Source: a virus. Taken from it: a DNA stretch of 64,000 bases. The position numbers and the translations under genes were made by a program. The stretch spans positions 96,001 to 160,000 of IMG/VR virus record IMGVR_UViG_3300037483_001670; one strand, given 5' to 3'. The notes under the pieces were generated by a model. It was not told the DNA's origin. It saw only the letters and a program-made list of their open reading frames with translations, and searched no databases. Of this stretch, positions 37,437 to 61,721 are shown piece after piece (position 1 is the stretch's first letter; every line of letters starts with the position of its first letter).

Positions 37437-37866
37437 GATTTCCTCCCGAACAAAGCACGCCGGCAATCGGCGCTATTTTGATGTCGTCGCGCTTCGGCAA
37501 GAGCGGCGCGAGCTGGCAGAACGCCCGTTCCACGGCGCTGTACGCGGCCGTCGTGTCGCCACCCTGCTCGAGAATCTTCGCCCAGGCGTCCTCGGCGATG
37601 GAAAGCGCCTTGTGCGCGTTCCACATGGGCTGCCACTTCGCTTCGATGGCGACGAGCCACATCTTTGCGGTGGCCTTGTCAGGGGCGCGGTCGATGGCGT
37701 CGTTGCCCTCTTTTTGCTCCATGTCGCGGAGCAGTGGCGTGAGCGCGTTGACGCTCGCCGCGATCGTGTTCGCGGCTTTCGTCTGCACTTCGATCGACTT
37801 CGGGCCGCAACCCGGCGAGAGGATGAGCACCGCAGCAAACACGATCGCACTAAGGAATCTGCGCAT
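37402..37866 (-). CDS. lipoprotein (possible o-spanin-like)
   Basis: MRRFLSAIVFAAVLILSPG-C lipobox; GGAGG RBS. Confidence 0.7.
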   Translation of the reverse strand: MRRFLSAIVFAAVLILSPGCGPKSIEVQTKAANTIAASVNALTPLLRDMEQKEGNDAIDRAPDKATAKMWLVAIEAKWQPMWNAHKALSIAEDAWAKILEQGGDTTAAYSAVERAFCQLAPLLPKRDDIKIAPIAGVLCSGGNHGSGDGSREAS

Positions 37867-38134
37867 TTTCGCCTCCAACTTGCTCGTCGAGCCAAGCAAA
37901 CGGGTTGATCAGGTACTTGTACGGCTCGAGGTCGACGATCATGGACAAGCCGTAGAGGACGGCCGCGCCGGCGCCGAACTTGATCATATTCTTGCGCGCG
38001 TCGTCCTCCATCCCCTCGACGAACAGGTGATGGAACGCGTGGTAACCGATCCCGACGCCGCCGATAAGACCCATGGCGATGAGCAGGAGCTGTTTGTCCT
38101 CTGCCGTCGGGTTGATGACACCAAGACCGTTCAC
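37850..38134 (-). CDS. 2-TM membrane protein starting MNGLG
   Basis: GTG start; two hydrophobic helices. Confidence 0.65.
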   Translation of the reverse strand: MNGLGVINPTAEDKQLLLIAMGLIGGVGIGYHAFHHLFVEGMEDDARKNMIKFGAGAAVLYGLSMIVDLEPYKYLINPFAWLDEQVGGENAQIP

Positions 38135-38187
38135 CGCGCCGGACGGCCGACACGTTTGCCCGGGTGAGCTCGGGTCGGTTGTCCAGT

Positions 38188-39048
38188 TCATGGAAGCGGC
38201 GGCCGTTGGTTGCAACCCGCTTCCGCCGCGGTAAGCGCACGTTCGGTTGCCACGAGGCTCGGACGAATCGCTTCGTCGCGCCACGATCGCATCCCGTCGT
38301 CGACGACAAACGGAGAACCCACCGGAGCCGCCGCGTCACTAAAGGAGACCGGCAGCCAATAGTCGCCGTCCGCGCTGGCGTGCAGACCCAGCAAGAACTC
38401 GAGAAACGGATTGCGACCACCGATCCAACCGTTCGCGTCTCTCCGCACCGCATCCAGAACGATGCGAACTTTGTCGTTCCTCCGGTCGTGGCATTTTCGA
38501 TAGTAGTCGCTCCGTTCTTGGTCAGTCAGCGCATCGATCGCAGCTCCAACTTCGCGTTCGAGAAGACGATCGTCCGTGCTGAGACCTTCGATCGCGTCCG
38601 CCACATGACCTGTCGCGCGCAAAGCTACCGCTGTCTCAGCAGCCAAAAGCTGCAATTTCGCAAACGGCACCAAACTCGCCAAATGCAGCTCCGGTCCAGG
38701 TCGGGAAATGTACAGCTGGTTGCGACGAGCCTCGGCCAGATATTCACCGTCGGCCGCGCGTCGTGTCGGCGGCACCAACGCAGTTTCATCCACCGCGATC
38801 CGCCCGAACGCATCGAACTGCCTCACCCGACCGAGCGCATCCTCTCGCGTCCCAGCTGGCATCAACTGCTCACCACCAATCGGCACATTGGCGATCTCCT
38901 GCGGCGCTGTCGCCACCATGGGCAGCGGCTGTGGCTCCACCTCGACAGCCCCTCCAAGCCGCATCGCGATCACCGATAGCACCGTACCAACGCCGTACCG
39001 CGCCAAAAGATCATCGATCTCTTTTTTGCCTTTTGCGTCGAGCATCAC
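38188..39048 (-). CDS. hypothetical protein
   Basis: 286 aa, AGGGAG RBS. Confidence 0.7.
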   Translation of the reverse strand: MMLDAKGKKEIDDLLARYGVGTVLSVIAMRLGGAVEVEPQPLPMVATAPQEIANVPIGGEQLMPAGTREDALGRVRQFDAFGRIAVDETALVPPTRRAADGEYLAEARRNQLYISRPGPELHLASLVPFAKLQLLAAETAVALRATGHVADAIEGLSTDDRLLEREVGAAIDALTDQERSDYYRKCHDRRNDKVRIVLDAVRRDANGWIGGRNPFLEFLLGLHASADGDYWLPVSFSDAAAPVGSPFVVDDGMRSWRDEAIRPSLVATERALTAAEAGCNQRPPLP

Positions 39049-39069
39049 ATCTCTCCCTTATCGAAGGCC

Positions 39070-39357
39070 CTACGGAACGCGTCCCTGCGCGGTCACCTTG
39101 ATCTCGAAGCGCTGAAACACCGACGCCTCCGGGTCCTCGTCGTACTGCTCGACCGCGTCGTCCCCGCCATACCACTTCGCCCCGGCTCGGCTCCAAACGA
39201 GCACGTCGAGCACCGACGTGCCGCGGTCTCCGGTGGTCTCAAGTGTGGCGGCGACGCTGATCGCGAAGCCGGCCGCCTCGTCGAACTTCTTGAACGTGCG
39301 CTGCTTGCCTCGCGCGTCGTCCACCGCGAACTCGACATCCTTGTGCGTCGTTGCCAT
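39070..39357 (-). CDS. hypothetical protein
   Basis: GAGGTG RBS. Confidence 0.7.
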   Translation of the reverse strand: MATTHKDVEFAVDDARGKQRTFKKFDEAAGFAISVAATLETTGDRGTSVLDVLVWSRAGAKWYGGDDAVEQYDEDPEASVFQRFEIKVTAQGRVP

Positions 39358-39360: not shown

Positions 39361-39903
39361 TCACCTCAATCCGGCGGGGCGCTCTTCGCCACCGCTGAAG
39401 CACTGGAGCATGCAATCCCCGCAGTAGCCGATCTTCCGACCGGTCACCAGCTCGGCAATGCTGTCGGCCGACCACTCGATCTGGTCGCGCGTACGATCTC
39501 GCCAAAGCCGCTGCCACGTGCGATGCCGCTTCGTATCCTCGGGCGTGACCCACACGGGCGACCCGGTGCCTTGAGGTGGCGTCATCCAATGCGCCGGGTA
39601 CGCATGATCGGCCGCGTGCCCGAACTCGTGCGCGAGAATCGCCACGAGCGTCTGCACGGGCAGGGAGACGATGTCCGGCGCGTAGTACATGACGCGCCCG
39701 TCGTCGCGCGTCGCTGCGAAATGACGGCCGTCGCAACCGGGCAACTTCGAGCCGCCTCGCCCCACCTTGGGATCGATGATGAACTTGATCTTCTTCAGAC
39801 GATCGAGCTTCACGCCGGGCGCTGGCGAGTACGCCAGAAAAACGTCGCGCACCGCATCGAAATGCGGCTGGAGCACGGCGTAGACGATCTCCTCGAGCTT
39901 CAC
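39361..39903 (-). CDS. HExxH metallopeptidase-like protein
   Basis: LVAILAHEFGHAADH. Confidence 0.7.
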   Translation of the reverse strand: MKLEEIVYAVLQPHFDAVRDVFLAYSPAPGVKLDRLKKIKFIIDPKVGRGGSKLPGCDGRHFAATRDDGRVMYYAPDIVSLPVQTLVAILAHEFGHAADHAYPAHWMTPPQGTGSPVWVTPEDTKRHRTWQRLWRDRTRDQIEWSADSIAELVTGRKIGYCGDCMLQCFSGGEERPAGLR

Positions 39904-40802
39904 ATCACCGGCCCTGCCCAGCCGTGCGCCTGAAACCACCCGGCACGATTCAGGACGTCGACCGAGTAGTCTCGCCCCGTCGTGTAGTAGTCGATGTCGA
40001 GGTTTGCGTTGAGGGCGCGCACCACGTTGCCCCCACCGCAGTTGTACGCCGCGAGCGAGGCACGAAGGAGACCGAGGCCGCGAATGGCGGTGCGGTCGTG
40101 CATGAACTTCCACATCCCGTTGAGCACGCCCGCGCCGTAGCGAATGTTCGCGGCCGCGTCCTGCCAGTTACCCGTCCGCGCAAACTCGTGCGCGTCGAAG
40201 TCGATCTGGAGGAGTCCGCGGCCGTACCCGGTGTTGCCCGGCGGGAGCGCCGCTGTCCGGAACTTCGACGGGAATCGCCGCTTCGTGAAGTCCCCCGTAC
40301 CGGTCGGACCGACAGGACGGAGCTGTAGGCCCCACCCGCTCTCCCGCGACCCGATCCCCGCAAGGACGCACGGCGCGACCCAGTCGTTGCTCGTGCGTCC
40401 CGCTGCGTCGACGACCAGATCGCGGTACTTCTCCGCCTGCTCGAGCTGGCGAATGAGCCCGGGCGAGTCGAGCTCGAAGGTCGTCGTCAGCACCGGATCG
40501 GTGTTGAGGAGACGGCTCCACGTAAGGGCCCCCACGATGCCGTCATCGGAGAGTTGGCACTCCGCTTGGAAATGCCGAACGGCCGCATCGGTCCCACGCC
40601 CGAAAAGCCCGTCCAGCTCGATCCGCATGCCGTGCTCGTTCAAGAGCCGCTGAAGCCGCTCGACGTCCGGACGAAGGTTCGGCGACGTATGGTCGTAGCC
40701 ATCGAAGAGACGCAGCATCGGAAATGCCTCCGTCCCGCCGCCGTTTGCCGCTCCGTCCCGCGGCGTGATCGGCGGCTCTTCCTCTGTCGCTTCGTCGACC
40801 AT
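39900..40802 (-). CDS. modular endolysin: peptidoglycan-binding domain + lysozyme-like domain
   Basis: DVERLQRLL...DGLFGRGTDAAVRHFQ...LSDDGIVGALTW; GIGSRESGWG...GYGRGLLQID...AAYNCG. Confidence 0.92.
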   Translation of the reverse strand: MVDEATEEEPPITPRDGAANGGGTEAFPMLRLFDGYDHTSPNLRPDVERLQRLLNEHGMRIELDGLFGRGTDAAVRHFQAECQLSDDGIVGALTWSRLLNTDPVLTTTFELDSPGLIRQLEQAEKYRDLVVDAAGRTSNDWVAPCVLAGIGSRESGWGLQLRPVGPTGTGDFTKRRFPSKFRTAALPPGNTGYGRGLLQIDFDAHEFARTGNWQDAAANIRYGAGVLNGMWKFMHDRTAIRGLGLLRASLAAYNCGGGNVVRALNANLDIDYYTTGRDYSVDVLNRAGWFQAHGWAGPVM

Positions 40803-40806: not shown

Positions 40807-41325
40807 TCAGCGCCCTTGCTGAAGTGCCGCGTTCGCCATCATCTGGGCGGTGGCGTACGAGATCTTCGACACGTACTCCTCGCCCTTGGCGTCGATCCAG
40901 CCCATGCGCCTCGCTTTGCGCAGGAGCTCGTCAGCCTCTTCCGGCGTGAACATGGGGCCAACGATGTTGCGGCAGCCCGAGCACGTTTGCACCGGCCACC
41001 AGGCCTGCTGCTGCTGGCTGTAGCGCCACTCGGTCACCTCTTGCAGCACCGGCGGGAGCCGCTGCGCCGCCGCGTACCGCGCGACTTCCTGCGGCGGCAC
41101 GTTGTACTTGATCGCCACGAGCTCGGGGTACTCGACGGTGAGCCGAAGGGGGCGCGGGCATCCGCGGCACTGCATTTCGACAGCCACGCCGTGCTGCGTC
41201 GCCTGCGTGCGGACGCTGTCGTGGGCTTTCAGCCCGCCGTCTTGCCCCGCGATGTTCGGCTCGCTCGCTCCGAAGATTCCGTCGGAACGGTTGATGATGT
41301 CTCCAAATCCATCGAACTGGCTCAT
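40807..41325 (-). CDS. Zn-binding hypothetical protein with N-terminal GFG motif
   Basis: MSQFDGFGDI...DGIFG; CRGC, CSGC. Confidence 0.75.
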   Translation of the reverse strand: MSQFDGFGDIINRSDGIFGASEPNIAGQDGGLKAHDSVRTQATQHGVAVEMQCRGCPRPLRLTVEYPELVAIKYNVPPQEVARYAAAQRLPPVLQEVTEWRYSQQQQAWWPVQTCSGCRNIVGPMFTPEEADELLRKARRMGWIDAKGEEYVSKISYATAQMMANAALQQGR

Positions 41326-47177: not shown

Positions 47178-48740
47178 TTATGGCCTCGAGACCAGCCGGC
47201 CACCGCTGACCGGATCGTTGACGTTGCCTCCAAAGCCGGTACCGCCACCGACCGCTGCCGCAAGAATGGCCCAAGTGGTCGCCGCTGTCGCGACATACGC
47301 ACCCGTCGTGTTGTCGAACGGACGAATGGTCGTCACGGCGCGCACCGAGAAGTCGCCACCGGTGCCAGTGATTGTGAACCCGGCCACTTGCCCGGCCAGA
47401 TAGCTGACCGTCCCCACGCCCACCGCAAGGCCCACGACCGCGTTGCCCTTGCCCCAGCAAAAGAAGCTGCCTGCCTGCGTCGAACCGTCGAACCGACCGT
47501 TCGTGATCATCTGAACCGCACCAGGACCAGGCGCGTCGAAGACCGCGCCACGCAGCCAACCCACGGGCCCGTTGACGAGGAACCTCGCGCCCTGGACCAT
47601 GAAGTCGCTTTGCACGGTCACGTTGTTGTTGCCGCCGGCCGACGACGACACGGTGGTCGCGGAAAACCCGGCCGCTAAGAGCAAGATCGCCACGTTCGCA
47701 CCGAGATTCGCGGACACCTCAGCGATCGAGCCCGAGATCAAGAGCTCGATGCACTCGGCCAGCAGATCGAACATCGTCCAGCCGCAGCCGTCGAGCACGA
47801 TCACATCCGACGACTTGAGAACGAAATCGCCAAGCGTTTGCGCCGCGTTGATGCCGAGCACGACGCTGTCGAAGATGACAGGCGAGCCCAAGTTCGTCGA
47901 AAAGTTGTCCGCCGAGTCGAGCGTAATGAGCACCGTCGGCAGACACACGAGGGACTCGACCACGAACGTGTTGGTGGCCACCGGCGTCGACGTCGACGTG
48001 AACCCGCTCGGATTGACCGGCACCGTGTAGCTGACCGGCGCGCGGAATTGGCAGACGCGGGCCTGCTTCGCGCCGAGGTCTTTCATCACGCCGCTGATCG
48101 CGCCCGTTGCCGCGCCGCTCGTCAGCCGAATACGCTTGTTGAGGAGGCCGCTCGCGGTCCAGCTGACCGGCAGCGCGTTCGACGTGATGAGCCACGACTC
48201 GTTCGTACCTGTCGCGCGATTCAACGTACCGAGAACGTCGATCACGCCCGTGAACAGCGTCGCCTTGCCTTGGTGGTCGACCGTGCTGCCGTGGACGAAG
48301 ATCTGAGAGTTTGTCTCACGTCGCCCTGCGAGCACGAAGGTGTCGCTCGGCAGCAAGTCGTTTAAGTATCGAAGGTGGTACGCGCCGGAACTCCAAATCG
48401 GGTACGAGCCCATACGGCGCTGCCGCTCGGCGTCGGACTGGAGGGCGGTGGCTGCGGTCGCGCCGTCGTTCGCATCGTTCCCGTTCACGGGATCGATGAA
48501 CCAGTTGAGCTGCTGCATGTAGAAGAGGTTGCTGCCTCCCGTGCTCTTCTGAATCCAGTTGCCGGCGAGGAAGATCGACTTGACGACGCTCTTGCCGTCC
48601 GCCACCAACGACGGCGGCGGGAGGCGGTACACGTAGTCCGCGTCCTCCGAGACGACGTAGATCTCGTCGCCCGGAATGACCCGCGAGTCTCCGAAGCCGG
48701 AGAGAGCGGTCGGAGTCGCTACGCTGCCTAGATCGGCCAT
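47178..48740 (-). CDS. spike/fibre-like paralogue A (beta-helix type)
   Basis: shared N-terminus LSGFGDSRVIPGDEIYVV...DADYVYR; WFIDPVNGNDANDG...DAERQRR. Confidence 0.8.
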   Translation of the reverse strand: MADLGSVATPTALSGFGDSRVIPGDEIYVVSEDADYVYRLPPPSLVADGKSVVKSIFLAGNWIQKSTGGSNLFYMQQLNWFIDPVNGNDANDGATAATALQSDAERQRRMGSYPIWSSGAYHLRYLNDLLPSDTFVLAGRRETNSQIFVHGSTVDHQGKATLFTGVIDVLGTLNRATGTNESWLITSNALPVSWTASGLLNKRIRLTSGAATGAISGVMKDLGAKQARVCQFRAPVSYTVPVNPSGFTSTSTPVATNTFVVESLVCLPTVLITLDSADNFSTNLGSPVIFDSVVLGINAAQTLGDFVLKSSDVIVLDGCGWTMFDLLAECIELLISGSIAEVSANLGANVAILLLAAGFSATTVSSSAGGNNNVTVQSDFMVQGARFLVNGPVGWLRGAVFDAPGPGAVQMITNGRFDGSTQAGSFFCWGKGNAVVGLAVGVGTVSYLAGQVAGFTITGTGGDFSVRAVTTIRPFDNTTGAYVATAATTWAILAAAVGGGTGFGGNVNDPVSGGRLVSRP

Positions 48741-49721: not shown

Positions 49722-49751
49722 CGCTCAGCTCGCGGTCTTACGCCCAAGGTA
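49722..49751 (-). promoter_or_regulatory. putative late promoter TACCTT-N13-CGAGCTGAGCG
   Basis: recurrent motif upstream of paralogue B. Confidence 0.7.
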
Positions 49752-49886: not shown

Positions 49887-51467
49887 TTACAACGAGCGCA
49901 AGGCGCATCCCGTCAACGGATCGAAAAATTGGCCGTTGAAACCGCCCCCGGCGATCGTGGCCTGAATGAGTACGGACGTCAGGTTTCGATACGCCGTGAA
50001 GGCCGAAGTCGCGGGGTCCCAGGCCGGCGCAGTCGTGCGGAGCGCCTGCGCGTTGCGCAGCGAAATCCACGCATTCGCTGGCGCTGCGGTGAGATCGATA
50101 AAGAAGTACCCCGCCACACCAGGCGGCACGGGCGTATAGCTCAGCGAGTTTCCGCTCGAGAGCAGGAACGCTCCCCCTCCTGCCCCAGCCACGCCCCACA
50201 CCTCACACCCCGCGTTCAAACAAGCGCCGCTGGCCTCGTACCCCGGCGCGGCCGTGTTGTTGAACACGCCCATGCCGTTCTGGAAGGTCCAAGATTTCAC
50301 GGCGCCCACCTGCGTCTCGGTCAGGCCCAAAAACCGCACACCCCCTCGCTGCTGGCTCACGAACCGAATGACCGCGCTAGCTTGGAAGGTGCGGAACGAC
50401 GGAGCTCCGGAGGCCGAGTCGTCCGCGTAACAATTCGCAAGCGTGATGCTGCTCGGAAGAAAGAGAATGGAGTTCGGCCGAATCCTGCACCCGACCATGC
50501 TGACCGCGCGCCCGGTCGCAGTGCCGTTCGCAGTACCCGTGCTGGCCCAATCCGAGCCCCACATGTAGACGCCCGCGTTGCCGGCCAGCGACATCGTCGT
50601 AATGGTCATGCTGTCGACCACGACCGCATTCGCCGTACCGTTGGTCTGCGCCGTCAAGTTGATAACGAGTTGCGCGATGCTCGTCAGATCTTCGACGACA
50701 AACGTGTCCGTCGGAGCTGGGTTGAACGTGTTGGTAGCGAAGGCGAGCGGATTGGTGAACGTCTGCGTCACCTGACACTCGTTCATGCGCGCTTGCTTCG
50801 CGCCGAGGTCGGCCATCGGCCATACGACGCCGCCAACGTTCGCGCCGCTTGTAAACCGACACCGCTTGTTGAGCAGCCCGTCAGCGGTCCACGAGGTCAC
50901 GATCGCGTTCGCGGTGATCTGAAGCGGCGTGTTGGTCGCGTGCGCCACCACCGTCACCGCATCCGCCGTCAACGATGCCAGGGTGGTCTTGCCCTGGTTG
51001 TTCGTGACGCTCGAGTGCAAGTAGATGTTGCACGCGGACGATTGAAGCTGCCCTGTCAGGATCACCGGGTCGGACGACGGCACGTCGGTCAGATACCGCA
51101 AGTGGTATTCGGCCAGCGTCCACATGGGCGCCGGTCCCATGCGCCGCTGCCGCTCGGCGTCCGTCTTCAGCGCCGTGGTCGAGGTGAGCCCATCGTTCGC
51201 ATCGCTGCCGTTGGTGAAATCGATGAACCAGTTCTGCTGGCTCATCATCGCGGCCGACCCGCTCGCGTTCCGCCGTTCCCAGAAGCCAGGCAAAAAGATC
51301 GCCTTGACAAGGTTCACGCCGTCGATCGGCGGCAGTGGCGACTGGAGGCGGTAAACGAAATCCGCGTCGATGTCGACGACGTAGACCTCGTCGCCAGGAT
51401 TCACTCGCGAGTCGCCGTACCCAGCGAGCTGCGCGAGCGTCGGAATCGTCGGGGCTAGATCGGGCAT
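49887..51467 (-). CDS. spike/fibre-like paralogue C
   Basis: LAGYGDSRVNPGDE; colinear with A (AERQRRMG..YHLRYL). Confidence 0.8.
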   Translation of the reverse strand: MPDLAPTIPTLAQLAGYGDSRVNPGDEVYVVDIDADFVYRLQSPLPPIDGVNLVKAIFLPGFWERRNASGSAAMMSQQNWFIDFTNGSDANDGLTSTTALKTDAERQRRMGPAPMWTLAEYHLRYLTDVPSSDPVILTGQLQSSACNIYLHSSVTNNQGKTTLASLTADAVTVVAHATNTPLQITANAIVTSWTADGLLNKRCRFTSGANVGGVVWPMADLGAKQARMNECQVTQTFTNPLAFATNTFNPAPTDTFVVEDLTSIAQLVINLTAQTNGTANAVVVDSMTITTMSLAGNAGVYMWGSDWASTGTANGTATGRAVSMVGCRIRPNSILFLPSSITLANCYADDSASGAPSFRTFQASAVIRFVSQQRGGVRFLGLTETQVGAVKSWTFQNGMGVFNNTAAPGYEASGACLNAGCEVWGVAGAGGGAFLLSSGNSLSYTPVPPGVAGYFFIDLTAAPANAWISLRNAQALRTTAPAWDPATSAFTAYRNLTSVLIQATIAGGGFNGQFFDPLTGCALRSL

Positions 51468-51494
51468 GGGGCGCAGGCGTCCTTCCGGACCGCG

Positions 51495-51526
51495 CGCTCA
51501 GCTCGAGCGTCCTACCCCAGAGGATA
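51495..51526 (-). promoter_or_regulatory. putative late promoter TATCCT-N15-CGAGCTGAGCG
   Basis: recurrent motif upstream of paralogue C. Confidence 0.7.
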
Positions 51527-51564
51527 CATGAGCCGGGGGCCAGGGCCAATCCCAAGCCGCAAAT

Positions 51565-52965
51565 TCATGGACTGAACGCGACCACGCCCCCCGAAGCGCC
51601 AGCCCCCGAGTCGTTGAACGGTATGGCGGACCAGTCCTTGTCCGTGGATCCGACCACCACCTGCCGAGCGGGCGTCAGATTGTCGTTGATCGTCGGCTTC
51701 GTCACGTACGTGAGCGCCGCCGCTGCCTTACACTTGACCGCGTGACCGGCGTTTCCGGTCCCCCATAGCAAATCCGCACCGAAAACCGCGCGACTGCGGT
51801 AGGTCGCACGCTCCTGAAGGTTGAGCGCCGCGTCCGGGACAGTCACGTCAAAGATCGAGAACAGGCCCGCCTCGACGTGACCGTTCGTGGTGATCTTGAG
51901 CCTCGAATCTTGGCAGATCCAATCCTTGTCCACGTAGAGGTACCCGCCCGTGTAGACATTCAACTGGCCACCGACCGAACCGCCGCCGAGCAGCATCGTC
52001 TGAGCTCCAGGCAGAAGGTTGCAATTGTCAACGCCGCCACCCACCACGTAGTAAAAGCCACTGCCCCCGCCGCCCATGGACATCTTTTTCATGATGCACT
52101 GGGAGAACCAGCACACCATCGTCGAATTGAAGGCGCCGCCTCCGCTCAACGAGATGCCTCCGTCGAGAAAAATCGAATCGATGGCGATGGCGTTCGCAGA
52201 CGGTCCGGCCGTCGCGTTCGACTGTTGCGCGAACTGCATCGTCCCAATCTGGAGCGTCGGCAACGAAGCAACTTCGTAGGGGTCGCCGATCACCGGAGTC
52301 ACCTGCGTAAAAGGGTCCCCGCTGATCGTCGCAGTGCCCCACGGACTCGTTCGATGCCGCGTACCCGTGAGGCTCAGCACGAGACGCGCGTACGCCCCCG
52401 ATCGCGCCCCGCCCGTGATCCGAATGAGGCTGCCAGCGTCGCCGGCGACGAGCTCGGCGGCCGTTGCGTCCCACGGAGTATGGGTGGCGCGATTGACCGA
52501 CGTCACTCCCGTCAGAAGTCCCGACTTCACGGTCGTTCGTGCACCCTGAAGGCGGAGCGTTCCGCCGGTAAGCATTTGCACATTGTAGTTCGTGGGCGTC
52601 GCCGGGGAGTCGACGTAGGTCACCGTCGTCGGCTGCGCCAACTGCGTCACAATCCCCCATCGCCGCTGCCGCTCCGCCTCGGTAATCGCCGACAGCAACG
52701 TGGCTCCGTCGTTCGCGTTGTTGCCCGCCGCGCTCACGAACCAATCTGCCTGCCCGAGAAACGCGCCCAGCGACCTACGCACCCAGTAACCAGGCAGAAA
52801 GATGCTCTTGACGATCGAGTCCGCGTCCGCGACTAGCAGCGGCGGCGCGACACGGTACACGAAGTCCGCATCGTCACTCGTGACGTAGACCTCGTCGCCG
52901 GGAATAATGCGCGAATCTCCGAACCCGGCCAGAGCTGCTGTGGTCGCTACACTCCCGCGATCCAC
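51565..52965 (-). CDS. spike/fibre-like paralogue D
   Basis: LAGFGDSRIIPGDE; AERQRRWG..PTTVTY, IRITGGAR.GAYARLV shared with B. Confidence 0.8.
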   Translation of the reverse strand: MDRGSVATTAALAGFGDSRIIPGDEVYVTSDDADFVYRVAPPLLVADADSIVKSIFLPGYWVRRSLGAFLGQADWFVSAAGNNANDGATLLSAITEAERQRRWGIVTQLAQPTTVTYVDSPATPTNYNVQMLTGGTLRLQGARTTVKSGLLTGVTSVNRATHTPWDATAAELVAGDAGSLIRITGGARSGAYARLVLSLTGTRHRTSPWGTATISGDPFTQVTPVIGDPYEVASLPTLQIGTMQFAQQSNATAGPSANAIAIDSIFLDGGISLSGGGAFNSTMVCWFSQCIMKKMSMGGGGSGFYYVVGGGVDNCNLLPGAQTMLLGGGSVGGQLNVYTGGYLYVDKDWICQDSRLKITTNGHVEAGLFSIFDVTVPDAALNLQERATYRSRAVFGADLLWGTGNAGHAVKCKAAAALTYVTKPTINDNLTPARQVVVGSTDKDWSAIPFNDSGAGASGGVVAFSP

Positions 52966-52968: not shown

Positions 52969-53586
52969 TCAACCCACGATGCCGTCGCGCTCGATGTCGA
53001 GCTCGTCACCGAAAATCAGCATGAGCGGCCCGGCGCTCTCGGTATAGACCACGAGAAACGGCTGGTCTTCGCGCCCGCTGGAGCGCGACCACAAGATCTT
53101 GCTGCCCCCGACGTAGGCGTGCCTGACCCGCACATGCACGACGCCGTCATCCTTGCCACCGAACCCGGGATCACTGTCCGTGCCCGCCGTGTGGAGCTGG
53201 ATGTCGACCGCTTCGAAGAGGCCGAGCAGGGCGAAGTGCTTCGGCATCGGCACGCCGGCGAAGGACACCAGGGGACCGATGACCGGCACCGGCGCACGCG
53301 GGCGGCGCTCGCTCACCAAGAAGTCGGGTCGGCAAAGGATGCGGTTGCGGCTCTCGGCGATGTGCTTGTAGAGCTCCTGCTTGCCGTCCGGCACCCACTT
53401 CTTCGGCCGGTCCGGGTTGATCTTGTCCGACGCGTACGCGATGCCGAGCGAGTCGCCCACGTGCTGAAACGAGCTCGGCCACGTGAACGGGTACTCCTTG
53501 TCCCCCTTCAGCGGCTTCGCGCTGAACACAGAACGGTAGCCCTCGGCGATTTCGCGCGCGTCGACCACCCGAGGCTTCGCGCTCAC
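52969..53586 (-). CDS. hypothetical virion-module protein
   Basis: GTGA overlap start; 205 aa. Confidence 0.7.
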   Translation of the reverse strand: MSAKPRVVDAREIAEGYRSVFSAKPLKGDKEYPFTWPSSFQHVGDSLGIAYASDKINPDRPKKWVPDGKQELYKHIAESRNRILCRPDFLVSERRPRAPVPVIGPLVSFAGVPMPKHFALLGLFEAVDIQLHTAGTDSDPGFGGKDDGVVHVRVRHAYVGGSKILWSRSSGREDQPFLVVYTESAGPLMLIFGDELDIERDGIVG

Positions 53587-53915
53587 CGAAACCACCCCTG
53601 CCGGCTCGCGTAGTATCCTACCGCGAAGAGCGCCGCGCCCACCAAGGCGAGCGTCGCATTCGAGCTTGTTCCGAAGTTGATCGCGCCCATCGCGCCCTTG
53701 CCGCATTGCACGACCATGCCTCGAGCGTGCCACCCTTGCCCGACCAGCTTTGCGCTGCTCGGCAAGGGACGACCTGCGACGATCGCCGGCACGCCGACAC
53801 CGTTCGTGGGCGCGGGCAGGTTCGGCACGGGCAAGTCTGCGTTGAGCGGCAGATCGTCGGCCGACTCGTAATACAAATAGAGCCCCTTCTTCGGGTCGAA
53901 GCACGAATGGATCAA
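53583..53915 (-). CDS. C-terminally anchored membrane protein
   Basis: GAMG/NFG + ALVGAALFAVGYY. Confidence 0.75.
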   Translation of the reverse strand: MIHSCFDPKKGLYLYYESADDLPLNADLPVPNLPAPTNGVGVPAIVAGRPLPSSAKLVGQGWHARGMVVQCGKGAMGAINFGTSSNATLALVGAALFAVGYYASRQGWFR

Positions 53916-54760
53916 GCGAACGCTCCCGCCCGGCGCGGCGTACGGTCAACGAGCACGGGCAACCCGTACCGCACGAGCACGTACAACACGCCCGTCACCA
54001 TCGCTGCCGTTCCGAGCTGGTTCAAGAACGTGCCGGCCGCGCCGAACGGGTCTTCCTTCTGGAGGCCCTCGGCCGCGCGCACGCACTGCTGCACCGTGGC
54101 CATGTCGCCTTTCTCCTGCGCCCGCGTGCAGAGATCGGCCATGGTCTTGTTGTTCAGCTCGAGCCGCTTCGCGTTGTAGAGGTAGACGACGATGACGACG
54201 GCAAGCGCAACGACGGCCACCACGACCGCCCACGTGATGATCGGCGCCACGCCGAGCCCGCTCACCGGTACGGCCGCGAAAAACTGCGCGAGATGCCCGT
54301 CGCGATCCATCTTGACGATCCCGGCGAACACCTGAAGCCGGCTCGCCGCATCGGTGCGCGCCCACTGCGACTGGATGACGCTCCCTTCCGCGGCTTCCCG
54401 GTCGACCGCTCCCGAGAGCCACGGGCCGAGCCCGAGCGACGCCTGCGTGAACACCGCCACGACGAACGATCGTGCCATGTCAGCGCCGAACGAAAGGTGC
54501 AGCTGATCCGGCAGCGCTTCGGCGCTCGGGTCCGCGAACACGGAGGCCAGCGTCGACGTGTTGCGATCGGCCCACACCTGCACCTGGCGGAGCGTGGCGG
54601 CCGCGCTGACCGGATCGAACTTGAGGTTCGGGTCGTACTTGCGGAGGGCTGCAAGGGCGGCGTCGTGCCCCGCGACGAGCTGTTCCGGCAGAGTCGCACC
54701 CGGGAAGGACGGAAGGTTCGCGCGCGCCAGACTGAGAGTTGCCAGATCGGAACTAGCCAC
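53912..54760 (-). CDS. 2-TM membrane protein
   Basis: VSGLG then TM IITWAVVVAVVALAVVIVVYLY; second TM near C-terminus. Confidence 0.8.
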   Translation of the reverse strand: MASSDLATLSLARANLPSFPGATLPEQLVAGHDAALAALRKYDPNLKFDPVSAAATLRQVQVWADRNTSTLASVFADPSAEALPDQLHLSFGADMARSFVVAVFTQASLGLGPWLSGAVDREAAEGSVIQSQWARTDAASRLQVFAGIVKMDRDGHLAQFFAAVPVSGLGVAPIITWAVVVAVVALAVVIVVYLYNAKRLELNNKTMADLCTRAQEKGDMATVQQCVRAAEGLQKEDPFGAAGTFLNQLGTAAMVTGVLYVLVRYGLPVLVDRTPRRAGAFA

Positions 54761-55034
54761 GTCGCCTCCTCGCGCCCGCCGTGGGCTGGCGCGCAAAGTC
54801 CATGATAGCCGCGAGGCCCACGAGCGCGCCGCAAAGAATCGCGCCCCAGCCCATCGGTCCCATGGACGCTTGCAACGGCCCGTTCGGCACGCACTTGAAC
54901 GAAATCGGATCGGTATGCTGGCCCGACGGACACGCCCGCAGCTCTTCGCTGGCGAAGATGACCGCGCACCCGCCCGGCGCCTGCGCGTCGGCGACCTGAC
55001 CCCTCGGACACAGCGTCTCTCCGAGCCCCATCAT
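54753..55034 (-). CDS. Cys-hairpin membrane protein starting MMGLG
   Basis: CPRGQ..C, CPSGQHTDPISFKC; C-terminal TM + RRRR. Confidence 0.75.
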   Translation of the reverse strand: MMGLGETLCPRGQVADAQAPGGCAVIFASEELRACPSGQHTDPISFKCVPNGPLQASMGPMGWGAILCGALVGLAAIMDFARQPTAGARRRRG

Positions 55035-56098
55035 CAGCGGTGCCTCTTCGCGTGTTTGACCGGCGCACCCGTGAAGAGCGCCGCCCCTAGCGCGAGCCCG
55101 ACCCCCGCCACCACGAACCAGCCCGCCGATGCCGCCTTCGGGGGCACCGGCTTCGGCACGCACCGCTCGAGCGCTTCGTCGAAAACGTCGTTCGGGCCCC
55201 CGCACGTCACCGTCGTCGACCCCTGCCGCTTCGGCATCTTCGCGATGATTTCGCGCGCGGTCTGGTCGCGCTCGATGCGCTTCATCTCCAGCCGGGCCAA
55301 GACGTCGGACCGAGTCGATTCGTTCGTCGCCTTCGCGAGCGTCGCGTAGAGCGCGTCGAGCTCGCGCTCCGCGGCCTTCCACTTCGAGTAGAGCGTCGAG
55401 TCCCCGTCGGGGGGCGCCACTGGGTGCAGGGCCACGTTGATCGTCGGCACGACCGAAACGCTGTTGCGCACGCTCGGGTTCAGATCGACACCCGCGCCCA
55501 CCTCCGCCGCTGCCCCGAGCAGCGCGTCCTCGAAGAGTCCGAGCCGCGCAGACGACGGACCGCCGTAGCCGCACGCCTGGAGCGCCGCGATGCCGCGCTG
55601 AAGCAGGTTCGCCGCCTCGTACCGGAGCGCGACGTCGAGCAAAAGGAGCCCGTTGGTCGTCGGCTGCGCGAGCCCGTTCACCACCCCAAACAGCGGAAAC
55701 GCGAAGCACATGTACCGCGGCGCCCACCGCGACAGGAAGGCCACGAACTCGTCCGCCGCGACGTCACTCCAGGTGTCATCGTCGACAAGCTGCGCCCAGA
55801 GCGATTCCTTGATCAGCTCTTGCTCGCTCCACGGAATGATCCCGGGCGTCGCGCCCGCCTGGCCAAGACGCTTCAGGGCTCCCTTGATCTCGCGCACGCG
55901 ACCGGGAGCGCCGAGATCGTACGACACGATGGGGTCCGCGCCCAATGCCGCGCGGTGGCGTTGCCCGTACTCGAACGGCTCGTAGGCGCGCTCTCCGACG
56001 CCGGGGCCCTCGTATTCGCCCATCGTGCCGGCGAGATCGCGCCGCTCACGCAGCGTCCAAAAGGGCTGCGTACCGGCAGGCATTCCAAGCCCGCTCAT
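55034..56098 (-). CDS. C-terminally anchored membrane protein starting MSGLG
   Basis: 354 aa; CGGPNDVFDEALERC; TM + KHAKRHR. Confidence 0.8.
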   Translation of the reverse strand: MSGLGMPAGTQPFWTLRERRDLAGTMGEYEGPGVGERAYEPFEYGQRHRAALGADPIVSYDLGAPGRVREIKGALKRLGQAGATPGIIPWSEQELIKESLWAQLVDDDTWSDVAADEFVAFLSRWAPRYMCFAFPLFGVVNGLAQPTTNGLLLLDVALRYEAANLLQRGIAALQACGYGGPSSARLGLFEDALLGAAAEVGAGVDLNPSVRNSVSVVPTINVALHPVAPPDGDSTLYSKWKAAERELDALYATLAKATNESTRSDVLARLEMKRIERDQTAREIIAKMPKRQGSTTVTCGGPNDVFDEALERCVPKPVPPKAASAGWFVVAGVGLALGAALFTGAPVKHAKRHR

Positions 56099-56506: not shown

Positions 56507-56929
56507 TTACTTCTTCTTGGCGAGCAGCGCGAGTACCAGACCGCCCGCCGCGATCCCGCCGATGATGTAGGGCGTGTTCGGCCCGAAGATCGACATGAGC
56601 GACTTCTTCGGCGCGAGCGAGGGGGGCGTCACCGTGGCCGTTCGGATCGGGACCTGCTGGGCGCCCGCACCCTTGCCGGTCAGATCGACACCGGCCTTGA
56701 CGGCCGCCGCGATCTGCGCCGACGACATGTACTTCGTGAGCGCCACGCAAGCTTTGTCGGCGTCGACCCATTGCGTTCCCGGACCGCACATCGTCGACTG
56801 GTCCTTGCAGACGCCGCCGACGTCGATCGAATCTTCGCCGCAAATGCACCTTGACGCGTCGTCGTCCCAATGCCGGCCCGGCGGACAGTCCTCGGCGCCC
56901 ATACCGTACGAAATGAATTGCTGCCTCAT
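56507..56929 (-). CDS. Cys-hairpin C-terminally anchored protein
   Basis: YGMG; CPPGRHWDDDASRC, CGPGTQWVDADKAC; TM + KKK. Confidence 0.8.
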   Translation of the reverse strand: MRQQFISYGMGAEDCPPGRHWDDDASRCICGEDSIDVGGVCKDQSTMCGPGTQWVDADKACVALTKYMSSAQIAAAVKAGVDLTGKGAGAQQVPIRTATVTPPSLAPKKSLMSIFGPNTPYIIGGIAAGGLVLALLAKKK

Positions 56930-56944: not shown

Positions 56945-57313
56945 TTAGAACGCCGACTGCGTTGTTGGTTTGCGCACCCAAAGAGCCGCGCCGAGCAGGC
57001 CGGCGAGGCCAAACGTTCCTGCCATCGCGCCCGCGACCGCTCCGCCAGCGGCCCAGAAGGCGCGGTCGGTTGGCCGGGGCGCCGCGAAATAGCCGAGCGC
57101 TCCGACGAGCAGCGCGTCCCCGATCGTGTACCCGGTCACGGTGCCGAATAGCAGCGGACGGTCAGCGGCCCCGATGCCGGCCGGCGCAGTCGGGGCGACC
57201 TGCCCGACCTTCTGCATGGCCGAGCAGCCGCAGCCGATCCCGTTCACTGAGCGCGGCGCGAGATCGGTGCGCACGAGAGGGTACGGATTGATCGTCTGTC
57301 CCGCTACGAACAT
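56945..57313 (-). CDS. multi-TM membrane protein
   Basis: VNGIG, AGIG; Gly-zipper TMs. Confidence 0.75.
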   Translation of the reverse strand: MFVAGQTINPYPLVRTDLAPRSVNGIGCGCSAMQKVGQVAPTAPAGIGAADRPLLFGTVTGYTIGDALLVGALGYFAAPRPTDRAFWAAGGAVAGAMAGTFGLAGLLGAALWVRKPTTQSAF

Positions 57314-57318: not shown

Positions 57319-58005
57319 CTACTTCTTCCTCGGGGCCGGTTTCCCGAAGCCTTGCGCGAGCGCGATGGCAGGCGTGATGACCGGAAACGCGCCGCCCATG
57401 AGACCCCACCAGATCGCCCAACCGATCGACTCGTTGCGCCTGTAGCCGTGGTACGCCGACGCGGCGAGCGACGCCGAGCTGAGCGCCCACCAACCCGTCT
57501 TGCCGAGCCAGCTGTTCGCCGGGTTGAACCTGAGCCATTGACCTGGACCAGCCACCAGCGGGACACCCTGTCGTGCCTGCACGAGCCGGCTCTGAAACGC
57601 CTGCGCCGTATAGAGCCGCTTCTCGGCCTGAAGCATCTCGATGTAGGTCTGAAGCTGCGACGGCACTCCACGAAGAAAGCCCGCCGTCAGATCGTCGAGC
57701 GCGTCCGCGTTGTACGCGCCAGCGCCGGCAGCCACGTCGGCGTCCATCGCCTGCTTGATCGCGCCCTTGGTCTGATCGACCTCCGCGGCGGTCACGCCCT
57801 CCGGCAGCGGAAAGGGTGCCGCGTCGAGACCCGCGTAGGGCGCGAGCGCGTACGGGTTGATCGCCAGCTGCTGACTGAACATCGGCTGGTTGAAAATCGG
57901 CCCGTGGTAGCGCGTCGGGTACGGGTGCACGTGCGGCACGAGCGGACTCGGCACGCCGTTCTCCGTGTCTCCAAAAATCGACTCGTTGCCCGATTGCATA
58001 CGCAT
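57319..58005 (-). CDS. membrane protein with SAYHGYRRN..GWA.WWG motif
   Basis: C-terminal 2-3 TMs, ends AQGFGKPAPRKK. Confidence 0.8.
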   Translation of the reverse strand: MRMQSGNESIFGDTENGVPSPLVPHVHPYPTRYHGPIFNQPMFSQQLAINPYALAPYAGLDAAPFPLPEGVTAAEVDQTKGAIKQAMDADVAAGAGAYNADALDDLTAGFLRGVPSQLQTYIEMLQAEKRLYTAQAFQSRLVQARQGVPLVAGPGQWLRFNPANSWLGKTGWWALSSASLAASAYHGYRRNESIGWAIWWGLMGGAFPVITPAIALAQGFGKPAPRKK

Positions 58006-58018: not shown

Positions 58019-58234
58019 CTACGTTCCTGCGGGCGGTCGCGCCATCACGACAAGCGCCGCCACCGGTCCCACGATCGCCCCCGTCACCGCGAACTCCTTG
58101 CCACCGAGCGCGTGCCCGAGAAAATAGCCGGCGATCCCCGCCCCGACGATCGCGATGCTATGCGTCAGCGCGGGCGGCACCTCGGCCGGTGCGCCAACGC
58201 CCGCGGTGGGGCACATCATCGCCGGCCACTCCAT
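58019..58234 (-). CDS. small 2-TM membrane protein
   Basis: TAGVG; two hydrophobic helices. Confidence 0.65.
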   Translation of the reverse strand: MEWPAMMCPTAGVGAPAEVPPALTHSIAIVGAGIAGYFLGHALGGKEFAVTGAIVGPVAALVVMARPPAGT

Positions 58235-59082
58235 CAGCGCGCTCTCCTCCGCCTCTTCGTCGGATGGCCCGTCACGGTCCCCGCGAAGATCGCCGCGCCG
58301 ACACCCACGAGCGCCGCGGCGAAGAAATACGCTGTCCACGATTTTGCGCCGCTCGCGTCGGCGGTGTCACCGACAGCCGGAATGCTCTGCTGAAACGCGA
58401 CCGTGTACTGCGGGTTCGTCGCCGAGTACGCGTCGACAGTCGACCGCATCGGCACTTCCGCGCGCGTGTCGGGCACCGCCACCGTGCCGCCGTAGTACGC
58501 CGGCGTGACACCGTGCGGAGGCGGACCCGAGTCGCGCACTGGACCCACCGGCACTTGCAGCGAGCTGCCATCGCCCGGCTTCCGATCGCCACGAATGACG
58601 ACGTAGGGGTTGTTGTGATCGTCGACCTGAAGCGGCCCGACGAGGCGCCCGCCGCGCTCGACGTACGCCATGCCGCCGCCAGGGACGACCACGACATCGG
58701 CCCCGCTCGGGAGATCGATGACCTCCTTGCTGACGGCGAATTGCACCTCGCGCGCGATGTAGCCGGGAAGGCTTGGATGGTCCGAGAAGACTCCCATCGT
58801 CTTGTGGACCGTTCCGGGCCGACCCGATTCGTCGAAGATGCCGGAGCCGACGACGTCGTCGTCGCTCTCGATTTGCTGAACGTAGTCGTCGTGGCGCTCG
58901 CCCTGGTAGCTTTCAGGTACGGCGCCGAAACCTGCAACGGCTCGACCTTGGGACAAGCTCCACCTCTCTTCGATCACGGGGTTCAGCTGCCCGATGAGCG
59001 GCAACCGGCTGCTGATCGGGTCCTTGTTGACGAGACGCCCCGTGTAGGGCTGTCGACTGGGCAAATGGATGATACCGGGCAT
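58234..59082 (-). CDS. C-terminally anchored membrane protein
   Basis: VAGFG; TM + KRRRRAR. Confidence 0.8.
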   Translation of the reverse strand: MPGIIHLPSRQPYTGRLVNKDPISSRLPLIGQLNPVIEERWSLSQGRAVAGFGAVPESYQGERHDDYVQQIESDDDVVGSGIFDESGRPGTVHKTMGVFSDHPSLPGYIAREVQFAVSKEVIDLPSGADVVVVPGGGMAYVERGGRLVGPLQVDDHNNPYVVIRGDRKPGDGSSLQVPVGPVRDSGPPPHGVTPAYYGGTVAVPDTRAEVPMRSTVDAYSATNPQYTVAFQQSIPAVGDTADASGAKSWTAYFFAAALVGVGAAIFAGTVTGHPTKRRRRAR

Positions 59083-59083: not shown

Positions 59084-59944
59084 CTACGCCGCCTTTCGCT
59101 TCTTTTTCGCCACGTAGTACGCACCGCCGCCGATCGCGAGCGCCGCGACGCCGAGGGCGACGAAGAGACCGGTCTTGCTCGAGCTCGCCGGCTGCGTCAT
59201 CGCGTACGTCGTCGTCACGGCCGCCGCAGGCGAGTCCATCTTCTTGATCTGAAGGAAGCCGGCCCCGGGCCGCACGACCTGCGGCGTGTAGTCGACCGCC
59301 GGCTTCGGCGTCTTCGACGGCTCCTCGAACGACTCCGGCCACTGCGTCGGATCCTCGCACACGCTCGGACGGGTCAGCCCCTTCGGCACCGGCGCGACAT
59401 AGTTGCCCGAGGCATCCATCTCGAGCTTGCACATGTCGGTCATCCACTGGCTCTTGCCGAATGGTGGAATGCCCTTGGTGGGCACCATCGACTTCTCTTC
59501 GGCGATGAACCGCGGCCTGCTCGGTTCGAGACCCTTGTAGTTCAGGTACGCGACGGTCGCGTTGTAGGAGTTCTGTTCCGTGCACGGCCACGCCCGGTCC
59601 CAGGTGGTCATGCGCCCGTAGATGCCGCAGTTCCCAACCACGCCGTTGACGGTGAGAGATGGCCCCTTCTCGAACCCGGCCGCGTCCCACGGGTTGGCGG
59701 GCGCGTCACCGAAGCCAGAAATCGCGCGCGCCTGGCGATCCGCCGTCCACGATGGGGGCACCACCTGCGGCACGACGTCCGACGCATAGACGCGCTGACC
59801 GAAGATGTCCCGGCCCACGCCCGCGTGACCGTCAATCCGACCCGCCACGGTCTTCGTGATGGGCTTTGGGCTCATGTCCGCCGAGTACCGACTCGTATCG
59901 GTTTGCGCCAACGATCCGAGCCCACCAAAGATTCCGTTCGTCAT
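59084..59944 (-). CDS. C-terminally anchored membrane protein (YSADM family)
   Basis: IFGGLG, ISGFG; TM + KKKRK. Confidence 0.8.
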   Translation of the reverse strand: MTNGIFGGLGSLAQTDTSRYSADMSPKPITKTVAGRIDGHAGVGRDIFGQRVYASDVVPQVVPPSWTADRQARAISGFGDAPANPWDAAGFEKGPSLTVNGVVGNCGIYGRMTTWDRAWPCTEQNSYNATVAYLNYKGLEPSRPRFIAEEKSMVPTKGIPPFGKSQWMTDMCKLEMDASGNYVAPVPKGLTRPSVCEDPTQWPESFEEPSKTPKPAVDYTPQVVRPGAGFLQIKKMDSPAAAVTTTYAMTQPASSSKTGLFVALGVAALAIGGGAYYVAKKKRKAA

Positions 59945-60543
59945 GTCGCTGCTCCTCCTGCGGTCTTCGTGCCCGTTACGAGCCACGCGACACCACCGAT
60001 CGCGGCGAGCGCCAGAATCCCGACTCCAGCGTAGATCGCCGCCTTGCTCTTCGGCTGCTCTACGGCGTACGTCGTGACAACCGCCTGCGCCTGCGCCGGC
60101 GCCGGGGCGGGAGCAGAGGGAGGCGCGGCCGGTTTCTTGAACAGCGCCGGGAAGCCTGGCGGCGACGGAACCGCGCCCGAGCGGATCGCAGCGATGTACG
60201 CAGCCGCGCCCGTGTAGTTGCTACCGCCAGCAGCGTTCTGCGCCTCGCGGTAGACGCTCAGAATCATCGCATTCGGCAGGTTGCAGGCCCACTCGGGCGG
60301 CCATCCGCCCCGCGGAATCAACGCCGTGCACGAGTTCGGCGGCCAGCCGTATTTCGCGTTCAGCTCGAACTGGTGCGGCTCGTCACGACTGTAGTAGCCG
60401 TGCGTCACCATGTCGGGCAGCGGCGGGCAGCACGCCCCATCGGGGGACGGCACCCATGCGCCCACGACGGCGCCGAACGCACCGATCGCATGCGGCATGT
60501 CCGCCGAGTACCACGTCGAGCCGCCAAACGAATTTTGACGCAT
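59941..60543 (-). CDS. C-terminally anchored membrane protein (YSADM family)
   Basis: NSFG, GAFG; TM AAIYAGVGILALAAIGGVAWLV. Confidence 0.75.
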   Translation of the reverse strand: MRQNSFGGSTWYSADMPHAIGAFGAVVGAWVPSPDGACCPPLPDMVTHGYYSRDEPHQFELNAKYGWPPNSCTALIPRGGWPPEWACNLPNAMILSVYREAQNAAGGSNYTGAAAYIAAIRSGAVPSPPGFPALFKKPAAPPSAPAPAPAQAQAVVTTYAVEQPKSKAAIYAGVGILALAAIGGVAWLVTGTKTAGGAAT

Positions 60544-60549
60544 TCGAGC

Positions 60550-61041
60550 CTACGCCTTCTTGCGGGACATGAACCAGAGCCCGGCGCCGATGGCCGCGAG
60601 CGCGAGGCCGGCACCGACGACGTACGTCGTGGTCGACATCTCCCCGAGGCCCTCGACGGGCTCGCCGTAGCGGTTCATTCCGTACGGTCCGCGCCGGAGG
60701 GGTCCGCCGAAGATGCCGTGGCCGCCCCACTGCAAGCCGACCGGAATCTGCTGATCGATCGGATCGCCGAAGCCCTGCACCGCGGCAAGCTTGCCCTCCC
60801 ACGAGGGGTTGATGGCCTGGGGGATCGAGTCGGACGCGTAGATGTACTGCCCGAAAATGCTCTCACCGATCACCTGCGCGCTCTGGCCCAAGATCGGAGA
60901 CGGCTGCGTCGGCAGCACGGTCGGCACCTTCGTCTCCGTGATCGGCTTCGGCTGCATGTCGGCCGAGTACTTCTCCATCGCACCGGCCGTACGCGTGCCG
61001 ATGCTGGACACTACCCCGAAAACACCGCCCATTCCGTTCAT
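60550..61041 (-). CDS. C-terminally anchored membrane protein (YSADM family)
   Basis: MNGMG, VQGFG, VEGLG; TM + RKK. Confidence 0.8.
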   Translation of the reverse strand: MNGMGGVFGVVSSIGTRTAGAMEKYSADMQPKPITETKVPTVLPTQPSPILGQSAQVIGESIFGQYIYASDSIPQAINPSWEGKLAAVQGFGDPIDQQIPVGLQWGGHGIFGGPLRRGPYGMNRYGEPVEGLGEMSTTTYVVGAGLALAAIGAGLWFMSRKKA

Positions 61042-61058
61042 GTTGACTCCTTTGGACC

Positions 61059-61721
61059 TCAGTCGAGTTTCATCTTCAAGAGCGTCTGGGCCCGCCCTGC
61101 GGCTTCCAGCTCGCGCGGCCCTGCGACGCCGTCGAGCAAAATCCATTTCTCACTTTTCGGCTCTTGCGCCGTGATCGCCACGTGCGAGAGCTTCCCCGGC
61201 GCGAATCCCATTGCGACGAGCGTGACGTTGCGGCCGATGGTGAGGCACATCGTCGCCGCCATCGTCGAGACGTCGTCACAGTCGACGACGGTCGAACCGT
61301 AGGCGTTGATCTCTTCGACCTGGCGCTGCGGGTCCTTCACCATCTCGACGTGCCGCGGATCGTTCGCGTACCGAAAGAGCGCGATGCCGGGCACCCAAGG
61401 ACTCGGTTGCACGAACACGTTGCGAATCGCGAGGATTTCGCCGAGGTAGTCCTTCGGCTGCACGCCGCGCAGCGCCCACTCGGTGAACTGCCGCACCTCC
61501 ATGGAGCGCTCGCCGCGCGCGCCGAGGGCCGCGTCCGCCATCTGTTTCAGCGTCGTCTCGGGTCCGCGAAACGGCCGCACGGTGTACGAGCTCGGCCGAA
61601 ACGCGGCCTGCTCGGCCGCAAACCCAAGGAACCCGCCGCCCACGCTCGCGCCGCCCGCCAAAGCTTGCGGCATGAGCGGCATCCCTGTGCGAGCGTTTTT
61701 CTCTACCAAGCTGAACGACAT
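61059..61721 (-). CDS. transglutaminase-like Cys-His-Asp enzyme (candidate maturation protease)
   Basis: FRYANDP..E.V..P, VVDCDD (Cys), LSHVA (His), WILLD (Asp). Confidence 0.85.
   Translation of the reverse strand: MSFSLVEKNARTGMPLMPQALAGGASVGGGFLGFAAEQAAFRPSSYTVRPFRGPETTLKQMADAALGARGERSMEVRQFTEWALRGVQPKDYLGEILAIRNVFVQPSPWVPGIALFRYANDPRHVEMVKDPQRQVEEINAYGSTVVDCDDVSTMAATMCLTIGRNVTLVAMGFAPGKLSHVAITAQEPKSEKWILLDGVAGPRELEAAGRAQTLLKMKLD

Follow-up and report, generated by a model that had tools for sequence, protein, structure and literature searches.

In vaccinia virus, both termini of the virion membrane protein A17 lie on the outer face, the N-terminus docks on the D13 lattice, and A17 is cut at AG-X by I7 (PMC4213562), which belongs to the C05/C57/C63 group of proteases and is not transglutaminase-like (PMC10318531). 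PeiW and PeiP, peptidases that do have a transglutaminase-like fold, act on pseudomurein rather than on virion proteins (PMC10318531). Here we describe a window of 64,000 nucleotides (bases 96001-160000 of IMGVR_UViG_3300037483_001670, a single virus record of 182,423 bp in IMG/VR) that encodes a transglutaminase-fold enzyme with a Cys-His-Asp triad alongside a module of candidate structural proteins, many of which carry a short motif with the core G-hydrophobic-G (G[FLMIY]G; in its strict form [MLIV]xG[FLMIY]G), hereafter the Gly tag. We put at about 0.5 the probability that this enzyme, 61059, is a virion maturation cysteine protease that cuts tagged membrane proteins, in a role like that of I7 on A17 but from a different family. 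Genes and their products are named by their first window coordinate (Table 1).

Vaccinia I7/A17 would be the best functional analogy. Common to the two systems is a short site that ends in Gly, placed on the shell-facing side at either end of a virion membrane protein, and in vaccinia docking on a jelly-roll lattice precedes the cut; however, there is no homology, and here dozens of proteins are tagged and the host is presumably bacterial. Similarly, adenain (MEROPS C5) is a viral cysteine enzyme with a short Gly-containing site on many virion proteins, and the strict hits formally fit its (M/L/I)xGx-G site. Adenain nevertheless belongs to another family, its catalytic order being His-Glu-Cys and that of 61059 Cys-His-Asp, and Peptidase_C5 has no match in the genome at E ≤ 0.1. 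The initial annotation of the window had called the site adenain-like, a description that we abandon because forms without the central hydrophobic residue are not enriched ([MLI]xGG, 1.07x; [MLI]xG[non-hydrophobic]G, 0.94x). LapG/BTLCP (C93) and PeiW/PeiP (C71) have the same fold and Cys-His-Asp order as 61059 and show that the fold can be a peptidase; the substrate of LapG is a periplasmic adhesin, not a virion protein. The Halopanivirales/Singelaviria (SH1, HCIV-1, P23-77) and SPV1 resemble this virus in its single beta-sandwich capsid candidate and in having many small membrane proteins, yet SH1, P23-77 and IN93 have genomes of ~17-31 kb, compared with 182 kb here, and all three lack the enzyme. 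Yutin et al. 2018 make no mention of a protease or transglutaminase (PMC5894146), and literature searches, with most subscription journals outside their scope, found no publication describing the enzyme-motif pair. As read here, the system works like I7 or adenain, yet it stands outside their group by profile and by site.

A Gly-hydrophobic-Gly motif in the structural module

The initial annotation reported 14 strict pentapeptides in 12 proteins of the module. All 14 are present in the minus-strand genes to which they had been assigned, but the true total is 16 in 13 proteins, with LAGIG and IRGLG, both in the endolysin-like gene 39900, having been overlooked; these two are probably incidental. 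The expectation that the motif would exceed a composition-matched null in structural genes is borne out: the 16 strict hits compare with 4.3 in per-protein shuffles (p = 0.001), whereas 219 other genes give 9 versus 9.5 expected. The excess persists when transmembrane (TM) helices are masked (16 versus 3.3) and when the four spike-like proteins are left out (12 versus 3.2). Chance is rejected as its source.

Some individual hits read differently on inspection. The four spike hits exist, but they represent one paralogous site that is absent at the aligned columns in four homologues from other viruses, and the L[SA]G[FY]G sequences are probably not true sites. (The 48728-49696 spike has 322 aa, compared with 466-526 in its paralogues, and a tail unlike theirs, a possible truncation or assembly error.) The site in gene 37850 is likewise present, but it reads MNGLG only with a GTG start at 38134; if translation starts at the ATG at 38191, which is coupled to the upstream stop codon, residues 20-24 read VNGLG instead. 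Outside the module, the background was said to consist of two hits, LAGLG and MTGLG, an undercount given that IDGLG (36795 open reading frame, ORF) and ITGLG (24219 ORF) also occur. LAGLG lies in an ORF at 6383 that the codon model does not call as a gene, and MTGLG (4892) lies inside a C-terminal hydrophobic segment.

Beyond the window, from genome 172090 over the junction to ~9800, lies a second structural arm. Its products include a basic core polyprotein of 851 aa, the capsid candidate described below (255 aa, highly conserved), and many tail-anchored proteins, half of which (9/18) have G-hydrophobic-G inside their first 25 residues. As an out-of-sample test, this arm contains G[FLMIY]G 40 times versus 13 expected (p = 0.001), whereas the strict form occurs only 6 times versus 2.7 (p = 0.065). 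Because the arm is enriched for the core and so little for the strict form, the core is the signal, and the upstream hydrophobic residue is a mere preference, weak in the second arm.

We called genes on ~100 related loci, kept 817 non-redundant structural-module proteins, and masked predicted TM helices. The core occurs 838 times versus 317 expected (2.65-fold) and the strict form 323 times versus 62 (5.2-fold), with ratios of 1.07x and 0.98x in 286 control proteins; against a composition-matched, TM-masked null the motif reaches z ~30, and G[AVSTP]G is not enriched. The logo is (A/G/P/S)-(M/L/V/I)-(S/A/Q/N)-G-(L/F/M/I/Y)-G-(A/E/D/Q). Conservation in homologues, on which the initial annotation had staked the motif, was found at 20 family-level sites (G 86%, hydrophobic ~93%, G 84%), the four spike hits excepted. 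For example, the R-x-L-A-G-L-G site of 58234 is conserved across 42 orthologues, most of which have a second site ahead of the TM helix.

The Gly tag is restricted to the non-basic membrane face, on dozens of unrelated membrane proteins. TM proteins hold 6.5 motifs per 1000 aa (62% of them carry at least one), compared with 0.7 in the capsid candidate family and 0.3 in the family of the soluble protein 52969. In two-TM proteins the density per 1000 aa is 7.1 ahead of TM1, falls to 0.9 in the loop (~eight-fold rarer), and reaches 17.8 behind TM2, and seeming exceptions to this sidedness, located after a single helix, are mostly mis-called hairpins. Partial forms behave asymmetrically: x-hydrophobic-G shows a slight excess (z +2.1, and +3.1 for a distant clade), and G-hydrophobic-x is depleted (z -8). 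This pattern is weak evidence that hydrophobic-Gly is what is recognised and that, in contrast to adenain, the cut would follow the final Gly. Cuts after a final Gly have precedents among papain-like proteases, e.g., Atg4.

The transglutaminase-fold enzyme and its relatives

The Cys-His-Asp triad of 61059, which the initial annotation had described as intact, comprises C148, H180, and D197 (codons starting at 61280, 61184, and 61133), and these residues are invariant in 107 homologues. In the predicted model (predicted local distance difference test, pLDDT, 86), C148 starts helix 148-161 and H180 starts a strand. Fold matches include the putative protease 3kd4 (Z 13.6, root mean square deviation [rmsd] 2.7, 139 aligned), and transglutaminases (Z ~11; TG2, 11.1), followed by LapG and PeiP (Z 8.9; range for LapG/PeiW/PeiP 8.3-8.9, identity 9-13%); together with the triad, these matches support the proposed transglutaminase fold. 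Adenain is not among the matches listed, the top ones being transglutaminase-like, which does not exclude it. In the Atlas the protein scores 0.95-0.96 against clusters with PF01841 in 11-66% of their members, and homologue P0275 passes the PF01841 cut-off. There was no Pfam hit for 61059, its sequence search against the PDB returned nothing useful, and neither did Pfam and PHROG scans of the module proteins.

The enzyme profile matches 1,240 clusters (50% identity clustering). Of the records reached through the capsid gene, 14/14 contain the enzyme gene; conversely, 6/6 near-complete records reached through the enzyme contain the capsid gene. The enzyme is a core gene tied to the morphogenesis module. 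It had been placed at the head of the operon; it does open the tail-anchored cluster, but three genes on the same strand precede it. Five homologues (P0241, P0242, P0253, P0263, and P0267) have inteins of 147-331 aa directly before the catalytic Cys, a placement consistent with an essential active site.

Twenty distant homologues have a C-terminal extension, which carries a Gly motif within 60 residues in 11 cases and an Asn motif (see below) in one; many of these proteins end in a TM helix and a basic tail. Two distant homologues are fused via Gly motifs to the module of the small membrane protein 53583-53915 (E 6e-12 and 1e-8), a candidate tether or partner of the enzyme. In 61059 and its close homologues, the N-terminal leader closes with FLG, a conserved variant of the motif. 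Given the fusions through Gly motifs to membrane anchors and the FLG leader, the enzyme apparently tends to lie on the tagged membrane face and to carry tags itself.

One relative is in culture: SSIP-1 (Salisaeta icosahedral phage 1), a membrane-containing icosahedral phage (PMC6356626, PMC6260650). SSIP-1 gp34, to which a distant homologue led, matches the enzyme profiles (E 5e-10 for the close one, 9e-38 for the broad one), keeps the triad, is annotated as a structural protein, and consists of a catalytic domain, GMG, and then a TM helix. The two viruses share the homologous catalytic domain, its triad, and the position of the gene after a coiled-coil gene. They differ in that SSIP-1 has a 44 kb genome, a membrane-anchored gp34, and no annotated protease function; its capsid genes have no hidden Markov model (HMM) match to the capsid candidate here. 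Leaders with G[ML]G are found in SSIP-1 gp36, gp37, gp52, and gp53. The model prokaryotic membrane-containing viruses PRD1, PM2, STIV, SH1, P23-77, and IN93 are without the enzyme, and pooled they show no enrichment, at 38 versus 32.7 for the core and 7 versus 6.8 for the strict form. The transglutaminase of GacPV1 is a distant, lipoprotein-like homologue with no strict hits in its genes and was not counted.

Maturation cleavage and its alternatives

In the mechanism that we favour, the enzyme would recognise (hydrophobic)-(small)-G-[LFMIY]-G with a small or acidic residue next in line, and the most likely point of cleavage would be behind the final Gly. The tags, on the non-basic face, stand in N-terminal leaders, ahead of TM helices, behind TM hairpins, and as repeats in the core polyprotein. 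They would first gather membrane proteins at the assembling shell, and the enzyme would then cut there to release leaders and soluble domains as well as itself. What the sequences show is the enrichment of the motif, its conservation and its sidedness, the fold of the enzyme with its invariant triad, the co-occurrence of the two across distant viruses, and the fusion junctions; catalysis on the Gly sites, the register of the cut, the docking step, and the virion architecture we infer.

Several results weigh against this mechanism. The same fold spans transglutaminases, amidases, and acyltransferases. SSIP-1 is enriched for the motif without masking (p = 0.008), but with TMs masked the count is 15 versus 9.0 (p = 0.06), and the enzyme-less P23-77 and STIV are nominally core-enriched (p = 0.03 and 0.04, uncorrected). 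Some orthologues have lost the final Gly, which is kept in 73% at the 58234 site. In addition, 94/842 sites end within the first 15 residues and others lie in short tandem repeats, placements equally apt for a binding tag. Lastly, 8/12 gene-fusion junctions have a Gly or Asn motif versus 3.8 expected, and Gly alone accounts for 4 versus 2.2, in a small test on a filtered set of 12 events only.

The alternative that survives best, unlikely as we consider it, is that the Gly tag stays uncut and serves for docking or sorting, by binding to a scaffold or to the capsid lattice, and that the enzyme acts elsewhere, for example on Asn sites in basic core proteins or, like PeiW/PeiP, on host cell-wall peptides. 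Terminal and tandem-repeat placement, strict sidedness, and near absence from the capsid protein all speak for docking. So does a second motif, [HMYLF]xxN (hydrophobic-x-x-Asn, then P/R/G/A), which is enriched 3-fold in basic segments (89 versus 29) and which may compete as the target of 61059. Transglutaminase-fold enzymes often act on carboxamide side chains. The Asn motif sits on the basic membrane face, opposite the Gly tag, in the core polyprotein (genome G000 172090-174645; L001:9667-12222) and in the basic tails of several module proteins; SSIP-1 gp41, gp43, and gp44 hold similar ENP sites. However, where enzyme homologues are fused, the tether lies on the Gly face and the joining motif is Gly rather than Asn (11 versus 1 of 20), and the protein found fused behind Asn sites is another conserved one, 52969, in the polyproteins of three relatives. 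Also against docking, the Gly motif marks precisely where a TM peptide begins and recurs where genes are fused.

The Asn sites could have an enzyme of their own. The 52969 family is present in 10/10 related genomes, and we speculate that it is a candidate second protease, although searches gave no protease match. (By eye, 52969 also resembles the C-terminus of SSIP-1 gp43, a likeness that is not significant, E 0.43, with no match in a further search, and was dropped.) Such an arrangement would amount to a two-signal code by which an undescribed, widespread lineage of 110-180 kb single-jelly-roll bacterial viruses matures, with the transglutaminase-fold protease cutting at Gly tags on the shell side and 52969, as a protease of a new family, cutting basic core proteins at hydrophobic-x-x-Asn on the side of the DNA. 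We consider this extension of the maturation-protease reading doubtful.

It is improbable that the enzyme is a transpeptidase or cross-linker, which would open the Gly site and move the acyl end to an amine (virion Lys or lipid) or form Gln-Lys cross-links. The initial annotation had allowed for cross-linking, and the best fold matches include human transglutaminases (Z 10-11), but tags at residues 1-5 would transfer a mere 5-residue peptide and Gln is not a defining residue of the logo. Still less probable is that a host protease or the 52969 family cuts the sites and that the transglutaminase-fold gene is a mere neighbour: 52969 is equally conserved and has invariant Ser, Lys, and His, but it matches no protease and is linked to Asn junctions. 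That the motif is a compositional artefact of Gly-rich linkers and TM helices has very little left to recommend it and is refuted for the motif as a class, for although module proteins are 10.7% Gly versus 7.4% elsewhere and the spike and endolysin hits look incidental, the masked null, the lack of enrichment of G[AVSTP]G and [MLI]xGG, and the conservation in orthologues all contradict it.

The virus and its structural module

The 182-kb genome is probably a complete circle because the two ends of the record share a direct repeat of ~127 bp; the IMG/VR entry lists it as linear and 73% complete. The gene of the capsid candidate lies at genome 174808-175575. Its product is modelled as a single beta-sandwich, with the SPV1 capsid chain as best match (Z 6.7, rmsd 4.0, 136 aligned), a Z under the tool's reliable level, and no Foldseek match at E ≤ 0.001; the model suggests a single-jelly-roll capsid protein, as yet an unproven candidate. 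A related record (G001; L031, 32850-34040) has a second copy of the capsid candidate, matching in three pieces, besides the intact gene. The virus is probably a large, tailless, single-jelly-roll bacterial virus, and the abundance of TM proteins is our one indication of an internal lipid membrane, which it probably has.

Among hallmarks of the Caudoviricetes, the search covered one large-terminase family, Terminase_6N, and gave no match; it did not extend to the HK97 capsid or the portal protein. A HerA/DUF87-like ATPase gene (L141; genome G000 79396-81225) was set aside as a packaging motor because 10 relatives lack it. For the group, no conserved FtsK/HerA packaging ATPase was identified, and the SSIP-1 ATPase as query finds nothing.

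Table 1. Genes of the structural module, by window position
Feature	Position	Strand	Motif and remarks
Transglutaminase-fold Cys-His-Asp enzyme, candidate maturation protease	61059..61721	-	C148, H180, D197
Tail-anchored protein	60550..61041	-	MNGMG at residue 1, VQGFG at 88, VEGLG at 129, then C-terminal TM
Tail-anchored Pro-rich protein	59941..60543	-	relaxed forms only (SFG, AFG); paralogue of a second-arm protein
Tail-anchored protein	59084..59944	-	FGGLG (core at residue 8), ISGFG at residue 75
Conserved tail-anchored protein, homologues in 54 loci	58234..59082	-	VAGFG at residue 49, in R-x-L-A-G-L-G site
TM-hairpin protein	57319..58005	-	AQGFG after second helix, same face as N-terminus
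Membrane protein	56945..57313	-	VNGIG at residue 23
Cys-rich tail-anchored protein	56507..56929	-	SYGMG leader
Tail-anchored protein	55034..56098	-	starts MSGLG
Small Cys-rich tail-anchored protein	54753..55034	-	starts MMGLG
Conserved two-TM protein	53912..54760	-	VSGLG immediately before TM1; kept in 12/15 and 9/10 orthologues of two subfamilies
Conserved small membrane protein, 46 loci	53583..53915	-	fused behind enzyme and Gly motif in distant viruses
Conserved soluble protein, no known family	52969..53706	-	invariant Y, S, K, Y, H; C-terminal DGIVG; no Gly motif
Four paralogous spike-like proteins (47178..52965)	47178-48740, 48728-49696, 49887-51467, 51565-52965	-	common N-terminal module with L[SA]G[FY]G
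Protein with FDGFG leader	40807..41325	-	core at residue 6
Endolysin-like protein	39900..40802	-	PG_binding_1 and weak SLT match; homologous to SSIP-1 gp54
Two-TM protein	37850..38191	-	[MV]NGLG before TM1

In 53912-54760, the segment after the Gly site opens a hydrophobic, VAPII-like peptide (IAPIV in relatives), which we take to recall the N-terminal fusion peptides of pleolipovirus spikes. Elsewhere in the window there are 38 tRNA genes, on the minus strand throughout (17688-35267), with small ORFs interspersed. By eye, we noted a UvrD-like helicase with an apparent intein (3-2036), a thymidylate kinase (2809-3495), overlapping ORFs resembling a frameshifted IS1-type transposase (9603-10485), and an orotate phosphoribosyltransferase (15908-16483). 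Two related viral contigs (L125 and L126) are placed inside bacterial metagenome-assembled genomes (Pseudomonadota and Pirellulales), probably as binning companions.

In the current model, a maturation protease joined the jelly-roll virus lineage only after its entry into eukaryotes (PMC6260650). If 61059 does cut the tagged proteins, protease-driven maturation would have arisen independently in bacterial tailless viruses, with a protease of another fold and with dozens of membrane proteins tagged. SSIP-1, which is in culture and whose homologue is annotated as a virion protein, opens the idea to a direct test. The enzyme would be a marker for a large family (1,240 clusters) that Pfam and PHROG profiles missed in this genome, and the two-signal code, if true, would be an independent bacterial counterpart of the morphogenic proteolysis of poxviruses and African swine fever virus.

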